From the IMG/VR virus record IMGVR_UViG_3300045988_011597: DNA of 5,727 nucleotides; one strand, written 5' to 3'. A program made the translations under genes and the position numbers. The notes under the pieces are model-generated. The model was not told the origin of the DNA. It saw nothing but the letters and a program-made list of their open reading frames with translations, and did no database searches. This stretch comes from a virus. This document shows positions 1 to 5,727 of this stretch, one piece after another (the stretch's first letter is position 1; every line of letters begins with the position of its first letter).

Positions 1-43
1 AAAAAAAAAAAAAACGCAAGCCTGATTTTCGTCAGACTCACGT
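1..43 (-). terminator. Rho-independent terminator for - strand transcripts
   Basis: The - sense RNA reads ACGUGAGUCUGA-CGAAAA-UCAGGCUUGCGU followed by 13 more U. That is a 12-bp stem (14..25 pairs with 32..43), a 6-nt loop and a U-tract at 1..13. Three stem pairs are G.U in the - sense RNA but C.A mismatches in the + sense, so the hairpin is better in the coding sense. It begins 13 nt after the stop codon of the 57..239 CDS. Confidence 0.8.
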
Positions 44-55
44 TTTTTTGCGGTT
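1..55. repeat. Direct terminal repeat copy A (identical to 5673..5727); circular-assembly overlap
   Basis: A14 followed by cgcaagcctgattttcgtcagactcacgtttttttgcggtt occurs identically at both window ends, by base-by-base comparison. Confidence 0.95.
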
Positions 56-56
56 T

Positions 57-239
57 TTACATTACTACGAATTCTTCGTGGTAGGTTTCTTCGTGCCGTT
101 TGCAGTAGGCGTCATAAAATTCTTGTTCTGTGCATGGTGCCATTTCCCTGTGCAGTTCTTCTCTGATTTCGTTGTCCATCAGGTTTACTGCTGCTTCGTA
201 GTCGATGTTGTTTCCGTTCTGGTCGATGACGTATTTCAT
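57..239 (-). CDS. Small highly acidic hypothetical protein (60 aa), accessory gene
   Basis: Product: MKYVIDQNGNNIDYEAAVNLMDNEIREELHREMAPCTEQEFYDAYCKRHEETYHEEFVVM. It has 15 D/E versus 5 K/R. The ATG at 239 has SD AAGGAG (247..252) 7 nt upstream. The 92-aa version in the ORF track (start 335) would run through the promoter at 279..307, so the shorter start is preferred. Confidence 0.7.
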   Translation of the reverse strand: MKYVIDQNGNNIDYEAAVNLMDNEIREELHREMAPCTEQEFYDAYCKRHEETYHEEFVVM

Positions 240-269
240 GGTTTTTCTCCTTTCGGTGTGTGTCTTTCT

Positions 270-301
270 TACACCTTTATTATACACCTTTTGCATACAC
301 T
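270..301 (-). promoter_or_regulatory. Operator-like direct repeats (A/G)GTGTA x3 at 13-nt periodicity overlapping the -10 and TSS of P1
   Basis: The + strand has TACACC at 270..275 and 283..288, and TACACT at 296..301. The same GGTGTA-N7-GGTGTA pair sits in identical register at P2. Confidence 0.5.
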
Positions 302-307
302 TGTCAA
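279..307 (-). promoter_or_regulatory. Consensus sigma70/sigmaA-type promoter P1 driving the acidic-protein gene
   Basis: The - strand reads TTGACA (302..307), a 17-nt spacer, then TATAAT (279..284). Both hexamers match consensus perfectly at optimal spacing, and the -10 lies about 40 nt upstream of the ATG at 239. Confidence 0.75.
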
Positions 308-324
308 CTACTTTTCGGTTGGTA

Positions 325-392
325 GGCTTGCCCATCAGACTCCCCGCCGCAGCGGCTCCGCTGTTAAGCTATTTGCGGCAAGCCGTCAGACT
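325..392. other. GC-rich structured spacer between the VP4 stop and P1, carrying terminator-related motifs
   Basis: ggcttgcc (325..332) is the reverse complement of ggcaagcc (377..384). The nested palindromes gccgc-a-gcggc and cagcgg-ct-ccgctg lie at about 345..364. tcagact follows each arm (335..341 and 386..392). Confidence 0.5.
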
Positions 393-425: not shown

Positions 426-1541
426 TTATATTTCTTCTCTTATCAGCTTTGTAAATTTATCTTGATTCTTTCGGTCTTTTGCGTCATAATATTCTTGCAT
501 GGTCAAGCCGGTCTGTTTGAGCTGGGCAAAGAGTGCATCGTTCGCGATTCTTCGCCGTTCGCGTTTGATGGCTTTCAGCTCTTCTGATTCGGCTTTTACT
601 ATTGTGTCTTCAATTCCCTCGCTTTCTGCTTCGGATAGTGGTGCAGCATTCGAATGTTCCAGATCAAAGAGTTTATCAAAGTATCTTGGTGGTTTGCATC
701 GTTTTCCGTTTTTCAGCTGGATTTCATCTTTTTTATAGATTTCTTCTTTGTGCTCCTCATAGTATTGCATTCCGATTGCCGGTGCTTTGCTCATCATGCA
801 TCGTTCTGGCAGCACTCCGAGTTCTTCGTAGTATTTTGCTGAGTCTTTGCCGTATATTTTTTTTGTGGTGTATCTGGCTGTGTATGCCATGTTTTTCCAT
901 TCTGCTGGTGCTATGACCACATGACCCATACCCCAGATTTTTGTTATCCAGTCTACATTGTAGTATCTGAATCCATTTTTTTGTTTGTAAACTTTGAGTT
1001 CGTCTTGTTTTATTGGTAGGTCATATACGATTGCATGATAATGCGGTCTGTGTGTCTGGCTTCCGTATTCGCCTGCCTGATAGTACATCAGTTTTCCGGT
1101 GTTTCTTTCATGGTATTCTAACCAGCGTCTTAGGCGTTTCCAAAATTTTTGCATGTCCTCATAGTTGAGTGTTAAGTTTTCTATGATGATTTCGCCTGTT
1201 TTTTTGTTAATGCCTAAACCCTGATTATAAGACCATGGTACATGTTCATTGTCGTATGTAAGTGTTAAAAACCATGCGTTTTCATGGTATGGCAGCTCCA
1301 TTTCCATCCTGTTTGCCCAGCTGCTTGCATTTTGCATTTTACAGCCTGCACAGTGTCCGCATGGTAGAATTTGCGCGTTTTCGTCTTTCAGCTTACGCAG
1401 CAGCTTTTTTTCTAGGCTTTCTTCCCAGAATGGTCCTTCAAAATTTTGCTGGTTGTTGTGTCTCTTGCCTGCCAGCAGGTATTTTTTCAGGGTCGTTATT
1501 TCGCCGTCTGCGAACCTGATCAGTGGTCTCGTGCACCCCAT
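426..1541 (-). CDS. VP4: Replication initiation protein VP4 (HUH rolling-circle endonuclease, Microviridae Rep)
   Basis: 371 aa. RCR motif I FLTLTY is at aa 91-96. HUH motif HYHAIVY was verified at 1023..1043. The catalytic double-Tyr motif YTARYTTKK was verified at 858..884. A CGHCAGC Cys cluster is at aa 61-67. SD GGGGTG lies upstream of the ATG at 1541. Confidence 0.9.
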   Translation of the reverse strand: MGCTRPLIRFADGEITTLKKYLLAGKRHNNQQNFEGPFWEESLEKKLLRKLKDENAQILPCGHCAGCKMQNASSWANRMEMELPYHENAWFLTLTYDNEHVPWSYNQGLGINKKTGEIIIENLTLNYEDMQKFWKRLRRWLEYHERNTGKLMYYQAGEYGSQTHRPHYHAIVYDLPIKQDELKVYKQKNGFRYYNVDWITKIWGMGHVVIAPAEWKNMAYTARYTTKKIYGKDSAKYYEELGVLPERCMMSKAPAIGMQYYEEHKEEIYKKDEIQLKNGKRCKPPRYFDKLFDLEHSNAAPLSEAESEGIEDTIVKAESEELKAIKRERRRIANDALFAQLKQTGLTMQEYYDAKDRKNQDKFTKLIREEI

Positions 1542-1635: not shown

Positions 1636-1845
1636 TTACTCATGGACTTTTGTTGTTTTGATGTTCCATTCATTTGCGAATGTGTAGCCTGTTACCTGTG
1701 TGCAATATGCTGCTATTGCGTCTCTGATAATGTCGCTTGTGTTCCCGCTCCATCCTCTGAGTATCATTTCATCTTTGATGGCTTCTAGTGCTGTGATTTC
1801 TCTGTCTGTGAGATTGATGTTGATTCTTTTTGTTACGTTTTTCAT
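1636..1845 (-). CDS. Ribbon-helix-helix (CopG/Arc/MetJ-like) DNA-binding protein, 69 aa
   Basis: Product starts MKNVTKRININLTDREITALEAIKDEMILRGWSGNTSDIIRDAIAAYC... It shows a beta-strand (RININL), helix A, a turn (SGNTS) and helix B (DIIRDAIAAY), which fits the RHH pattern. SD AAGGGG lies 7 nt upstream of the ATG at 1845. It has its own promoter P2. Confidence 0.7.
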   Translation of the reverse strand: MKNVTKRININLTDREITALEAIKDEMILRGWSGNTSDIIRDAIAAYCTQVTGYTFANEWNIKTTKVHE

Positions 1846-1880: not shown

Positions 1881-1899
1881 TACACCCATAATATACACC
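1881..1899 (-). promoter_or_regulatory. Operator-like direct repeats GGTGTA-N7-GGTGTA overlapping the -10 and TSS of P2
   Basis: The + strand has TACACC at 1881..1886 and 1894..1899. Spacing (13 nt) and register relative to the -10 are the same as at P1. Confidence 0.5.
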
Positions 1900-1918
1900 C
1901 CTTTTCTTTGTTTGTCAA
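1890..1918 (-). promoter_or_regulatory. Near-consensus sigma70/sigmaA-type promoter P2 driving RHH gene and probably VP4
   Basis: The - strand reads TTGACA (1913..1918), a 17-nt spacer, then TATATT (1890..1895). The -35 starts immediately after the VP2 stop codon (1919..1921). Confidence 0.7.
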
Positions 1919-2899
1919 TTATTTACGGTTTCTCGGGTCTGTTTTTCTAGCGAAGTCTGTTATGTTGTCGTAGTGGTCCATTCCGGTCATTTCGCTTTCG
2001 TTTTTGTTTCCGTTTTTGTTTCCGTATCTCTGGTTCGGTGCCAGACCTGCAAGTTTTTTGTTGCTTTCGTTTTCGTTTCGGTTGCTGCTTGTGATATTTT
2101 GCATATTTTTTGCGGATGTGCTCCCTACTTGGTTTGCCATCTGCTGCATGTTGGATGCAATTCCATATTGGTTTGTTTCTTTTGCGGTGTTGATCACTTG
2201 CATTGCGTTTTGGAGGAACTGCGCTGTGTTGTTACCGTAATCGTACATTGCTTGCATGTTTGCGGTGTGCGCTGTCGGTATGGCTGCGCTCTGCGTGTGG
2301 CTAAAGCTTTGGATGCCACTGCTTGCTGTTCCGCCGCTCGGTGCCTGACCTGCGCCGAATCCGTTGTATGCTGCAAGTACAGGGTTAAGCCCTGCTGCTT
2401 TCATGTCGGTAACGCCGCGCTGGTAACTGGTGTTGCTCATGCGTTCTTGCCATGCGCGTTGTGTTGCAGCTTCGTTTGAGTTGTAGCGCTGTGCGCTTGT
2501 CTGGCTTGCTAAGTTCAGGCCGTTGGCGAACATGTTCGAGAACATGTTCATGGTGTTTGCCATGCTCCACATTCCGCTTTGCAGGTTGTTTGCTGTCTGT
2601 GCCTGTCCTGCGTTGAATGCTCCGGCTGCTCCTGCGTTGTTTCCTGTCGGCGTTCCCATTGCTGTTTTCAGCGCGTCTACGATGCCTGATACACTGCCGG
2701 TTTTTACGCTTGCACCGCTTTCGCTGCTGCTGCCTGCGGTCGTGCTGCTCATGTTGCTGCTTGTGTCGGCTGTGCTGTTCATGCTCTGCTGTCCGCTGCT
2801 CGAACTGATGTTTTTTAACCCGCTCTGCAGCAGACTGCCGCCCACGTTGATCATTGCCGGTAAGCCGTATTGTATAAGTGCTCCTAGGATTGGATCCAT
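1919..2899 (-). CDS. VP2: Minor capsid / DNA pilot protein VP2
   Basis: 326 aa. It sits directly downstream of VP1. It has a hydrophobic N-terminus ([21 protein letters not shown]), S/T/N/Q/G/A-rich low-complexity flanks, and a conserved-looking core [20 protein letters not shown] typical of gokushovirus VP2. SD AAGGGGGTG starts right after the VP1 stop. Confidence 0.8.
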
Positions 2900-2910
2900 G
2901 TTGCACCCCC

Positions 2911-4557
2911 TTAGATTGTGTCAAGGCCCGGCACACTGTATACCGGCATCGGTCGTGTCCAGCTCTGGTCGAAGAAAAAGTTGCAGATAAACTGGTGACT
3001 GTTGCTTGACTGTACTGCAAGTGTTCTGTCGATGTTTTCCGTTCCTTCTTTGATCCAGCTGCTGGAGAGCGTCGGAAGTGTGTCGTACTTGTCTGCGTAG
3101 TGCCATGCGTCCAGAGTCTGAGCGTAGGTGCTGCGCATTTCGCTGGTTACCATGTTCGTCCTGTAGCGGTAGTCCGCCCAGGCCTCCTGATAACCGAATA
3201 CTTCTTCATCCTTTTCGGTCCCCTGTGCATAGATTTCGCGGTTAAGTACGGCCTGTTCCCCGAGGTTTGCAAGCATCGGATCATAGTAGCTAAATCGTGT
3301 GGTTCTCGTCCACATGCGCGGCAGTCCCTGCTGATAGCTGTGATCTACTCGGATTGCTGCCAGTCCCAGCACATAGCCATGCTCTGTTGCGCTGTAGGTG
3401 CACATGTTCCGGCTCATGGTCGTCATGGAGTATGCTGCAGTGTTGCCCTGCGGAGACGTGCTGTCGGTGCTGGATGTCTGAATCACCTGATTGATATTGA
3501 TCGGCAGTCGATATCCGCCGATATATTCGCTCCGGTCAAGTCGTGCGTCTGGGCTGGTTACTCCCCATGCGCCTTTCAGGATTTCTTTGTACCGCGTGCC
3601 GGTTCTTGCATCTCGTTCAAAGATGTGCTGCACTGCGATGGCTTGCCGCAGTTCGTTGATGGTTGCGCCTGCTACGTTGCTCAGGTCTGCCCATAAGTAT
3701 CCGCCGTCACCTTGTGTGCCTGCTGATGTTCGAGCGCCGATTACTTGTGTGGCTAGTTTCGGGTAGCCTGGTGTCGTGAAGCTCATGTTGTGCATGCTTC
3801 CTTGTGCATTTGCTGCTGTTGAGTTGAGATAGATGTATTGCGTTGTTGGGTATTCTTTTCCATCGGCGAAGCCCATAAAGATAGGTGCATTGCCAAGCAT
3901 CGGAATGGTTACCGGTTCGCTTGCTTTCTGCGGAGATGGCAGGCAGCTGGTGAAGTAGTCTTTGTACTTACAGACCTTCAAAGGCAAACCGCCTGCTTCT
4001 GCGTCGGTCAAGGCCGTGCCGGTGTTGCTGCCTGCGGTCGTCGTGTCGTCTTTGCTCTGTGTGACAGGCTGCTGCAGGTTTTCGTCCCTGAACCACTCGT
4101 TCCAGATTTTTGCATATGCTCTGAACGGCATACTGTTGACGCTCAGACCTTTCACGCCGGTCGGGATGCCCATATAATCCGCGATCGTGCCCACGTTCCA
4201 GCCGTTTTCCGGTGCAGTTGTCTGCGGAGTGGTGTATTCGGTTGTTTCTGCCCAGAAAGTGGAGTCGTTCTGTCCCATCAGGTTTTCGAAGTGGTTCCAC
4301 AGCAGTCGTGCCGGCACGAAGAAAAAGTAAAAGTCGATGTTTGCGTTATCCATGACAGGATAAAGCGGAGTCGCCATGCGCACCAGCGCGTTCAGGTTGA
4401 TCTTGAAAGTATCTGCAGGAAGTACCTCGTCAACGTAGATCGGTACAAGGTCGCCTTCGTTCATCGTGGTCAGCAGGTTAAAAGGCCGGTCGAATTTTGC
4501 GCGTCGGATTTCTGCATGCGGCACCTGTGCAAAGTGCTGCTCACTGTTTCTGTTCAT
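2911..4557 (-). CDS. VP1: Major capsid protein VP1 (Microviridae F-like jelly-roll capsid)
   Basis: 548 aa. The N-terminal signature is [43 protein letters not shown]...[27 protein letters not shown], characteristic of gokushovirus VP1. SD GAGGT lies 8 nt upstream of the ATG at 4557. Confidence 0.93.
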
Positions 4558-5050
4558 CTGCGTTTACCTCGTTTTTCGTCATTTTGTCGGTTCCGTTGTT
4601 CTGATCAGCCTGTGCTGCAGGATCGTTTTTCGTCGAAATGCCCATTTTTTCGAGCCATTCTTCTTCGCCTGCGGTTGCTGCCCAGTTCTGGAAGTTCATG
4701 CCGAACTTCTGCCTGATCTCCAGCGGCAGCTGGTCGAACTTTTCCCGCTGCTCGTTCATCAGGTTCAGGTATTCTGTGTACGTTTTCGGCAGTTTGGTTG
4801 TGTCGATGTAGTATCCCGGAGTTGCCAAAGCGCTTTCATCGCCTGCGGCGTATCGGCTGAGGATTGCCATTACGTCGCATTCGTCGCGGTAGCTCTGGAT
4901 TTTTTCGTAGGTGTTGACCTCTCCGACTTTTACAAGATACGGATGGCCTTTTTCGTCATATCGTTCTTTATACTCTGGTTCGAGCACGTTGCCTGCACAG
5001 TTCGGCTTTGCTTCTGGCTTCTCCTTTTCATACGGCTTGAAGATTTTCAT
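4541..5050 (-). CDS. VP3: Internal scaffolding protein VP3
   Basis: 169 aa. The ...YRDECDVMAILSRY... and ...FDQLPLEIRQKFGMNFQNW... blocks match the conserved ECDI and FDxLPxxIRxxFG pattern of Chlamydia-phage-type VP3. SD GGAGG lies 8 nt upstream. Its start overlaps the upstream gene stop as ATGA, and it overlaps the VP1 start by 17 nt. Confidence 0.8.
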   Translation of the reverse strand: MKIFKPYEKEKPEAKPNCAGNVLEPEYKERYDEKGHPYLVKVGEVNTYEKIQSYRDECDVMAILSRYAAGDESALATPGYYIDTTKLPKTYTEYLNLMNEQREKFDQLPLEIRQKFGMNFQNWAATAGEEEWLEKMGISTKNDPAAQADQNNGTDKMTKNEVNADEQKQ

Positions 5051-5325
5051 GCTTTCTTCCTCCGTGCCGGTTTTGCTGCCGGTTCCGTCATGGCTTTCTT
5101 TTCCTGCTCGATGTTGTAGACCAGTTCCGGCTGCTGCGGCATGATCTGGCCGGTTTCGGTGTCGTATTCGCCAAGCTTGTAAATGCGCTTGTCCTCGCAG
5201 TCCTGCTTTTCGGTTTCTTCGGTCAGCCAGTGGAAAGTACGCTGCGCCACTTTCGGGTTGATCACCATCAGATTGCCATATGTCCCCGCGAGTTCGTCCT
5301 TAATGCTGTAAATTTCGAGAATCAT
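5047..5325 (-). CDS. VP5: VP5-like small non-structural protein of gokushoviruses (92 aa from the ATG at 5325)
   Basis: MILEIYSIKDELAGTYGNLMVINPKVAQRTF...RIYKLGEYDTETGQI fits my recollection of the VP5/ORF5 pattern (M-x-I-F/Y-x-I-Y/F-D...A-x-R-x-F...Y-x-L-G-x-F/Y-D-x-x-T-G). AAGGAG lies 13 nt upstream of the ATG at 5325. The track start at 5367 adds 14 residues with no better RBS, so the start is uncertain. Confidence 0.6.
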   Translation of the reverse strand: MILEIYSIKDELAGTYGNLMVINPKVAQRTFHWLTEETEKQDCEDKRIYKLGEYDTETGQIMPQQPELVYNIEQEKKAMTEPAAKPARRKKA

Positions 5326-5524
5326 TTTCGTTGTTCCACTCCTTTTCGATTTGTTCATACAGTTCATCTTTGTGCCTGAGTCCTACTTTGATTGCTGCGC
5401 GTCCTGTGGTTGACAGGCTCGTTCGTTCTGCTTTTGCCCATTCGACGATTTCTGCAGCAGTCTCAGCTCCGACATAGATGTTCATCGTTGATTTAGGGTC
5501 TTCGCTTCTTCGGTATCCTTTCAC
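5300..5524 (-). CDS. Second RHH-like small protein (74 aa from the GTG at 5524; alternative ATG at 5485 gives 61 aa)
   Basis: The core MNIYVGAETAAEIVEWAKAERTSLSTTGRAAIKVGL fits a strand-helix-turn-helix RHH layout, preceded by the basic arm KGYRRSEDPKST. The GTG at 5524..5522 has SD GGGGAGGA 8 nt upstream and overlaps the TGA of the upstream basic ORF as GTGA. The 115-aa track call starts at a GTG only 1 nt from the SD, which is not credible. Confidence 0.5.
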   Translation of the reverse strand: MKGYRRSEDPKSTMNIYVGAETAAEIVEWAKAERTSLSTTGRAAIKVGLRHKDELYEQIEKEWNNENDSRNLQH

Positions 5525-5640
5525 AGCCTGATTCCTCCCCGGCTCGGCTTCGGCGAAATATTGATTTTTTTCGTCTTCTTCGCCGTGTTGGTAAAGATTT
5601 TCTTGTCGGTTTTCGGTTTTACGGTCTTTCTGTATGCCAT
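5521..5640 (-). CDS. Hidden 39-aa highly basic protein, candidate DNA-condensing/packaging protein (phiX174 J / gokushovirus VP8 analogue)
   Basis: Hand-translated product: MAYRKTVKPKTDKKIFTNTAKKTKKINISPKPSRGGIRL. It has 13 K/R and 1 D. The ATG at 5640 is preceded by the best SD in the genome, AAGGAGG (5649..5655), with an 8-nt spacer. It is the first gene after the terminator. It falls below the length of every ORF in the supplied track. Confidence 0.6.
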   Translation of the reverse strand: MAYRKTVKPKTDKKIFTNTAKKTKKINISPKPSRGGIRL

Positions 5641-5664
5641 TATGCACGCCTCCTTTTTTCTCTC

Positions 5665-5691
5665 ATTTTAACAAAAAAAAAAAAAACGCAA
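5665..5691 (-). promoter_or_regulatory. Weak candidate promoter for the structural operon, with the T14 tract as spacer
   Basis: The - strand reads TTGCGT (5686..5691), a 15-nt spacer (T13 + GT), then TAAAAT (5665..5670). The -35 match is poor and the spacer is short. It is listed only because no other promoter precedes the late genes. Confidence 0.2.
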
Positions 5692-5727
5692 GCCTGATTT
5701 TCGTCAGACTCACGTTTTTTTGCGGTT
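5673..5727. repeat. Direct terminal repeat copy B (identical to 1..55). It carries a second image of the terminator, at 5673..5715.
   Basis: Same 55-mer as 1..55. It is the same physical locus in the circular molecule. Confidence 0.95.

Follow-up and report, generated by a model that had tools for sequence, protein, structure and literature searches.

The small polybasic protein VP8 is an established component of gokushoviruses (PMC7062461; PMC11281519). It is an arginine- and lysine-rich polypeptide analogous to the J protein of phiX174, is important for DNA packaging and lines the capsid interior (PMC11281519). Two structures provide the closest described cases, 8DES (gokushovirus phiEC6098) and 9CGM (SpV4): in phiEC6098 the C-terminal residues of VP8 are ordered against the capsid interior, and in SpV4 residues 9-38 line the inner capsid surface with the C-terminal Phe buried in a hydrophobic pocket of VP1 (PMC11281519). 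The J protein of phiX174, also polybasic and about 38 aa long, enters the procapsid with the ssDNA and has its C-terminus anchored in the same buried region of the capsid (PMC11281519). In Escherichia gokushovirus prophages, the group to which phiEC6098 belongs, VP8 follows VP2 (PMC7062461).

The DNA analysed here is the 5,727-nucleotide stretch of IMG/VR record IMGVR_UViG_3300045988_011597 (hereafter the window). PHROG and Pfam scans of the long minus-strand ORFs identify it as a gokushovirus-type Microviridae genome with all genes on the minus strand. Since its first and last 55 nt are identical (an exact terminal direct repeat, positions 1-55 and 5673-5727), we take it to be a circular genome of about 5672 nt that was assembled with an overlap. 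By megablast against GenBank phages only 13-14% of the whole genome was matched, inside the VP1 region, and therefore no close genome is deposited among them. The following core genes were assigned:

426-1541, minus strand: VP4, replication initiator (PF23343 and PHROG)
1919-2899, minus strand: VP2, pilot protein (PHROG and Pfam scans)
2911-4557, minus strand: VP1, major capsid protein (PF02305 and PHROG)
4541-5050, minus strand: VP3, scaffold protein of the Chlamydia-phage type (PF09675 and PHROG)
5047..5325, minus strand: VP5, 92 aa from ATG 5325 (PF20577, E=1e-10; phrog_1670)

The PF20577 and phrog_1670 alignments to VP5 begin at residues 15-19 of a 106-aa ORF (5047-5367), and in relatives the tblastn alignment runs from residue 1 of the 92-aa form. 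Between VP2 and VP4 lies a small ORF of 69 aa (1636-1845, minus strand) with weak RHH matches (PF01402, E=0.07; phrog_29639, E=0.002); it is preceded by a promoter-like site (1918..1890) that matches 11 of the 12 positions of the sigma-70 consensus.

The locus of interest lies upstream of VP5 and comprises these features, given in the direction of translation:

5673..5721, minus strand: terminator-like hairpin (12-bp core stem, 6-nt loop) followed by T14 (terminator scan)
5649..5655, minus strand: Shine-Dalgarno (SD) sequence AAGGAGG serving the VP8 ATG (duplex -11.6 kcal/mol; conserved in relatives)
5645..5647, minus strand: GTG that opens a mechanical 115-aa ORF, not a real start as judged from the SD spacer, substitutions and relatives
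5521..5640 with the stop included, minus strand: VP8, putative 39-aa Lys/Arg-rich DNA-binding/packaging protein (phrog_10695, relatives, pN/pS and PDB matches)
5533..5538, minus strand: GGAGGA in the Gly-Gly codons of RGGIRL, likely SD for the downstream gene (-11.0 kcal/mol)
5521..5524, minus strand: GTGA stop/start overlap, a predicted translational coupling junction (TGA/GTG overlap and relatives)
5300..5524, minus strand: RHH-like accessory gene, 74 aa, from the junction GTG (substitution pattern, L102 and family profile)

The minus strand around the VP8 start reads ...AAAAAAGGAGGCGTGCATAATGGCA..., and the 39-aa frame translates as MAYRKTVKPKTDKKIFTNTAKKTKKINISPKPSRGGIRL, a peptide that opens MAYRKTVKPKTD... 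and ends ...SRGGIRL. With ten Lys, three Arg and one Asp this 4.4-kDa peptide has a net charge of +12 and a pI of 11.3; at 39 aa, with 13 K/R against a single D, it has the size and charge of a VP8 (about 25-45 aa, Arg/Lys-rich, very high pI). The ATG (5640..5638) lies 8 nt from AAGGAGG, and the stop codon TGA (5523..5521) overlaps a GTG (5524..5522), itself 8 nt from GGAGGA (5538..5533), to give GTGA. In all of these details, read on the minus strand, the coordinates of an earlier sequence-only reading were correct, and our ORF listing reproduced both its 39-aa and its 115-aa ORF. Its description of AAGGAGG as the strongest ribosome-binding site held in part: no other exact copy occurs in the window, but the site comes second in anti-SD duplex energy (-11.6 kcal/mol), behind the VP2 site at 2914 (-12.4) and ahead of GGAGGA (-11.0). 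Because 0.57 copies of AAGGAGG are expected by chance, its presence is not significant alone. Likewise, an ORF of 39 codons is unremarkable by itself in a window with 64 ORFs of at least 30 aa, and therefore the case for a gene rests on comparative evidence. For the predicted 39-aa gene that evidence is strong.

Relatives of VP8 were sought by tblastn, by pattern scans of IMG/VR and by exact cluster look-up. The peptide matches phrog_10695 over its full length (residues 1-39 of 39, E=3.2e-9), a family that PHROGs labels 'unknown function', and a Pfam scan of the 39-aa protein gave no matching model. By tblastn, 23 GenBank microviruses matched with at least 92% coverage and 64-82% identity; they come from samples of pig, human, chicken, lemur, rodent and ruminant. 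When a profile of 12 family members was searched against all PDB chains there were exactly two matches, 8des_E (E=8.9e-4, aligned over 1-39) and 9cgm_0 (E=0.075). The SpV4 match is thus borderline with the profile, and the single VP8 sequence matched 9cgm_0 at E=0.29; hhalign of the VP8 family against the 8DES chain gave a probability of 95.2%. We conclude that the 39-aa ORF at 5640..5521 is very probably VP8, the small DNA-binding protein that gokushovirus-type Microviridae have as their functional analogue of phiX174 J. The sequence-only reading had guessed at a genome-condensing protein of the J/VP8 kind, and these homologies, together with 'DNA binding protein' annotations of similar proteins, argue for that guess. 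As J itself was absent from the PDB matches of the family profile at E<=10, it counts here as an analogue, with no claim of homology.

The likeness to the solved proteins is closest at the C-terminus. Chain E of 8DES, deposited as 'Putative DNA binding protein', is a 39-aa polybasic protein like that of the window and has the identical C-terminal RGGIRL, although the two share only about 37% identity overall and phiEC6098 VP8 is Arg-rich (16 basic residues) whereas that of the window is Lys-rich (13). SpV4 VP8 ('DNA binding protein ORF8', 9CGM chain 0, 38 aa) is also small and basic with an RGGxR[LF]-type end, RGGRRF, in which the terminal residue is Phe and not the Leu found here. The J protein of phiX174, from another subfamily (Bullavirinae), ends in a different motif. 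Closer in sequence are proteins of Dulem viruses 202 and 206 and bajarodmic virus 406 (XCD03966.1, XCD07337.1 and XHH66864.1), which are 38-39 aa long, are 72-79.5% identical over the aligned stretch and are named 'DNA binding protein' by similarity only. In position, the VP8 of the window differs from that of the Escherichia gokushovirus prophages in lying between the VP4 side and VP5 and in its predicted coupling to the gene downstream. The Dulem and bajarodmic viruses likewise have VP8 upstream of VP5, but none has the RHH-type insert: in Dulem viruses 202 and 206 there is a gap of about 120 nt lacking an annotated gene and then VP5, and in bajarodmic virus 406 VP5 itself begins at the stop/start overlap.

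If this VP8 works as its solved relatives do, the basic N-terminal and central part would neutralise and tether the ssDNA genome during packaging, and the RGGIRL tail would plug a mostly hydrophobic pocket on the side of VP1 that faces the capsid interior, one copy per VP1 (PMC11281519). Solely from 8DES and 9CGM, we infer that about 60 copies would be present in the virion and would bind the ssDNA genome. The strong SD would suit capsid-level amounts of VP8.

For the comparison of reading frames we assembled 102 related loci, 18 from GenBank, 80 from IMG/VR (of 210 relatives found there by pattern scan) and four from further contigs. The VP8 ORF is unbroken in all 102, and the case that would have spoken against the gene, a short frame interrupted in relatives with the 115-aa frame conserved, was not found. 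Of 98 loci, 91 have AAGGAGG or AAGGAG at 5-10 nt before the orthologous ATG. When 92 distinct nucleotide sequences are compared, the short frame has a pN/pS of 0.28, whereas the shifted frames have 1.40 and 1.65 (the latter in the +2 frame), and third positions of the short frame are about three times as variable as positions 1 and 2. Alignment A1 of VP8 has 13 invariant columns, among them the anchor residues R34, G35, G36 and I37; conservation at R38 and L39 is 90% or more. The sharpest comparison is with the nearest diverged relatives (L099-L101), which carry 7-8 substitutions in the ORF, every one of them at a third position and silent in the short frame. On this pattern the short frame is evidently a conserved protein-coding gene under purifying selection in its own frame only, and VP8 is predicted to be translated from ATG 5640 behind its strong SD. 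In one IMG/VR locus (L071, 1201-1323) VP8 has 40 aa and a scrambled tail, …PKTEPGGESRL against …PKPSRGGIRL, which points to indels in the anchor motif that compensate each other, or to an error of sequencing there.

The same DNA is also covered by the 115-aa ORF, a mechanical call from the first GTG after a stop, the N-terminal part of which reads HNGIQKDRKTENRQ.... The assignment could be reversed: the 115-aa ORF from GTG 5647 would then be the real gene and encode an RHH protein greatly extended at its N-terminus, and the 39-aa frame would be open by chance. Neither the window nor its nearest relatives have a stop in the 115-aa frame, and public gene callers have called versions of 121-143 aa. 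These calls from close relatives (P0001-P0005; L099-L102, which are Logan/ENA contigs) are the sole database homologues of the 115-aa product, and one of them runs through the T-run of the terminator and translates it as 'FFFFF'. An open alternative frame is not in itself telling, since about 20% of synonymous recodings of the Lys-rich VP8 leave the other frame open. The proposed start, GTG 5647..5645, is separated from AAGGAGG by a spacer of 0-1 nt (C5648 between), and the same 7-8 substitutions in L099-L101, none of which alters the 39-aa protein, each alter an amino acid in the 115-aa frame; its N-terminal 41 codons show solely non-synonymous change among close relatives. The synonymous-site comparison proposed in the sequence-only reading was in this respect decisive. 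Moreover, the 115-aa frame is interrupted by stops in 9 of the 18 GenBank relatives, and in most relatives with a gene in this frame the junction codon is the first ATG, GTG or TTG. An ATG further upstream (ATGAGAGAAAAA...) shifts among all three frames from one relative to another as an A-run varies in length, as expected of non-coding sequence that holds an SD. We conclude from these comparisons that the 115-aa call is, as had been suspected, a mis-start, an artefact of taking the first in-frame GTG, and we give the reversed assignment next to no weight.

A second possibility is that both frames are translated as overlapping genes in the manner of phiX174, or, as a variant, that a -1 frameshift on the A7 run within VP8 (5568..5562) fuses the basic VP8 N-terminus to the RHH domain. 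Microviruses are known for overlapping genes, and no stop interrupts the +2 frame over the length of VP8 in the window or in many of the relatives that carry an RHH gene. Such an open frame means little, being expected in about 0.2 of recodings, and the pN/pS of that frame, in which every change among close relatives is non-synonymous, speaks against its translation; we regard dual translation as highly improbable. The frameshift fusion was rejected: L101 and L102 have AAAAAG in place of the intact A7 run, and no sign of coding constraint is seen in the +2 frame.

The reading preferred here, a separate VP8 followed by a gene of its own, places the start of the RHH-like gene at the GTGA junction, as the sequence-only reading had it. 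Substitutions past the junction are third-position biased (2, 0 and 9; 1, 0 and 9; 4, 3 and 13 at codon positions 1, 2 and 3), and therefore the 74-aa gene is taken to be real from the junction on. The alternative start is the internal ATG 5485, which would give a protein of 61 aa. In its favour, ATG outranks GTG as a start codon, the predicted ribbon strand (NIYVG) follows ATG 5485 directly, and the 13-codon linker that separates it from the junction is missing from the closest RHH-like orthologues (L001, L002, L041 and L042); yet those orthologues have no other start before the first strand, and orthologues start at the junction, with ATG as the junction codon in four RHH-type relatives (L030, L031, L041 and L047). 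ATG 5485 has no upstream SD (-1.0 kcal/mol as against -11.0 at the junction GTG), and in L102, which is about 90% identical, it is replaced by ATA so that the junction GTG is the only start. Codon changes in the linker, which include AGA to CGA, are synonymous in seven cases and non-synonymous in five. Taken together, these data support a predicted start of the RHH-like gene at the GTGA junction; initiation at ATG 5485 instead is unlikely, and that codon may be an additional start in this genome. Three loci in which VP8 is followed by a VP5-type or unidentified ORF (L010, L013 and L095) likewise have ATG at the junction. At its other end the RHH-like gene is overlapped for 26 nt by the start of VP5.

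Ribosomes that terminate at the VP8 UGA would, judging from the sequence and its comparison with relatives, re-initiate at the overlapping GUG (GUGA), probably aided by GGAGGA within the Gly-Gly codons. The outcome would be a coupled and probably lower translation of the 74-aa RHH-like protein and then of VP5. An overlap of the VP8 stop with the start of the next gene, as RTGA or TAATG, is present in 71 of the 102 loci, and GGAGG occurs in the Gly codons of 51 of these 71 as against one of the 31 loci with no overlap (raw p=2e-11), where a separate SD past the VP8 stop serves the next gene. Once related sequences are collapsed, this association shrinks to p=0.02-0.3 and the idea of an internal SD is no more than suggestive. 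The frequent overlaps, together with an SD inside the last VP8 codons, could also mean that the short ORF is mainly a leader or coupling device for expression of the downstream RHH and VP5 genes, its peptide having no structural role. The strong conservation of the VP8 amino-acid sequence (its invariant columns and low pN/pS), its homology to proteins resolved inside capsids and the persistence of the ORF in the 31 loci that lack an overlap leave this only a very slight chance.

The slot between VP8 and VP5 is variable, as seen in the window (5300-5524, minus strand) and in loci L001-L060. About 35 of the 102 loci hold in it an ORF of 60-74 aa, and these ORFs fall into at least five very divergent sequence types, all with an RHH-like pattern; in other relatives VP8 is followed directly by VP5. 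Profile A2 of the inserted genes matched pRN1 ORF56 (2k9i_A, E=5.9e-5) and, more weakly, ArtA, TraM and AvtR. Matches to Pfam RHH_1, RHH_3 and RHH_5 stayed below threshold (E=0.013-0.07), and a PHROG Arc-like repressor matched at E=0.045. A single-sequence AlphaFold2 monomer mixed strands with helices and had no clean RHH fold; with a best pLDDT of 77.5 and 49-59 for the other models, it was too unreliable to serve for a fold search. The label 'RHH-like' for the 74-aa protein is therefore reasonable but not proven. The only mildly new angle is that the codons of the anchor Gly-Gly may also act as a ribosome-binding site for this coupled, highly variable slot. In its fuller form, which we put forward tentatively and would not expect to hold with even probability, the anchor Gly-Gly codons, spelt GGA-GG, double as the ribosome-binding site that, together with an RTGA or TAATG overlap, couples whichever gene comes next, and the slot is one gut clade's hot spot for divergent RHH-like regulators. 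If this were true, synonymous Gly codon choice in VP8 would be set by the translation needs of its neighbour gene, and gut gokushoviruses would have in the RHH slot a regulatory module that has not been described before.

Upstream of VP8, the hairpin and T14 end 17 nt before the VP8 SD and are kept in L019 and L099-L102. A promoter scan between this terminator and the SD found none that was credible, the best candidate being a 9/12 match (5666..5639) that overlaps the ATG itself, and 17 nt leave no room for a promoter. The series VP8-RHH-VP5-VP3-VP1-VP2 would thus need read-through from promoters further upstream, or else the hairpin serves some other purpose, for example as an origin or a packaging signal.

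As to its novelty, the VP8 call is a correct re-annotation of a kind already known and brings nothing new on VP8 biology. The view in the sequence-only reading that the 39-aa ORF is unannotated and would be missed went too far, since the exact protein is already deposited (NCBI nr, ENA and Logan, on 11 contigs). The main worth of the call lies in annotation quality, the true VP8 having been concealed by a longer spurious ORF. VP8 is absent from many microvirus annotations because such a longer ORF or mis-start hides the gene, also in public calls: in 15 of the 23 GenBank matches nothing is annotated at the site of VP8, and in OM869554.1 (L015, 4714-5100) the VP5 'nonstructural protein' is annotated as extended across it. 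Whether VP8 is called correctly bears on microvirus taxonomy, on the structural modelling of capsids and on core-gene counts.

More interesting than VP8 itself are the variable RHH slot and a compact anti-CRISPR-like cassette on the minus strand at window positions 57-307, consisting of a promoter, an SD, a 60-aa ORF and then a hairpin-plus-T14 terminator. That terminator (8-49) lies in a copy of the hairpin upstream of VP8, at 1..49, duplicated through the terminal repeat. The promoter is a perfect sigma-70 consensus, TTGACA-17-TATAAT (307..279), and an AAAGGAG SD precedes the ORF of 60 aa from ATG 239 to TAA 57 (239..57); the mechanical 92-aa ORF here (335..57) is probably another mis-start. 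No paper on AcrIC5 together with Microviridae was found in the literature searched. The 60-aa product matches AcrIC5 (PF22147, E=8.5e-26; PDB 7yhr_A, 60 aa, E=1.1e-11), and an AcrIC5-like gene is also present in relative L100, while in L099, L101 and L102 this slot is empty or filled by other genes.
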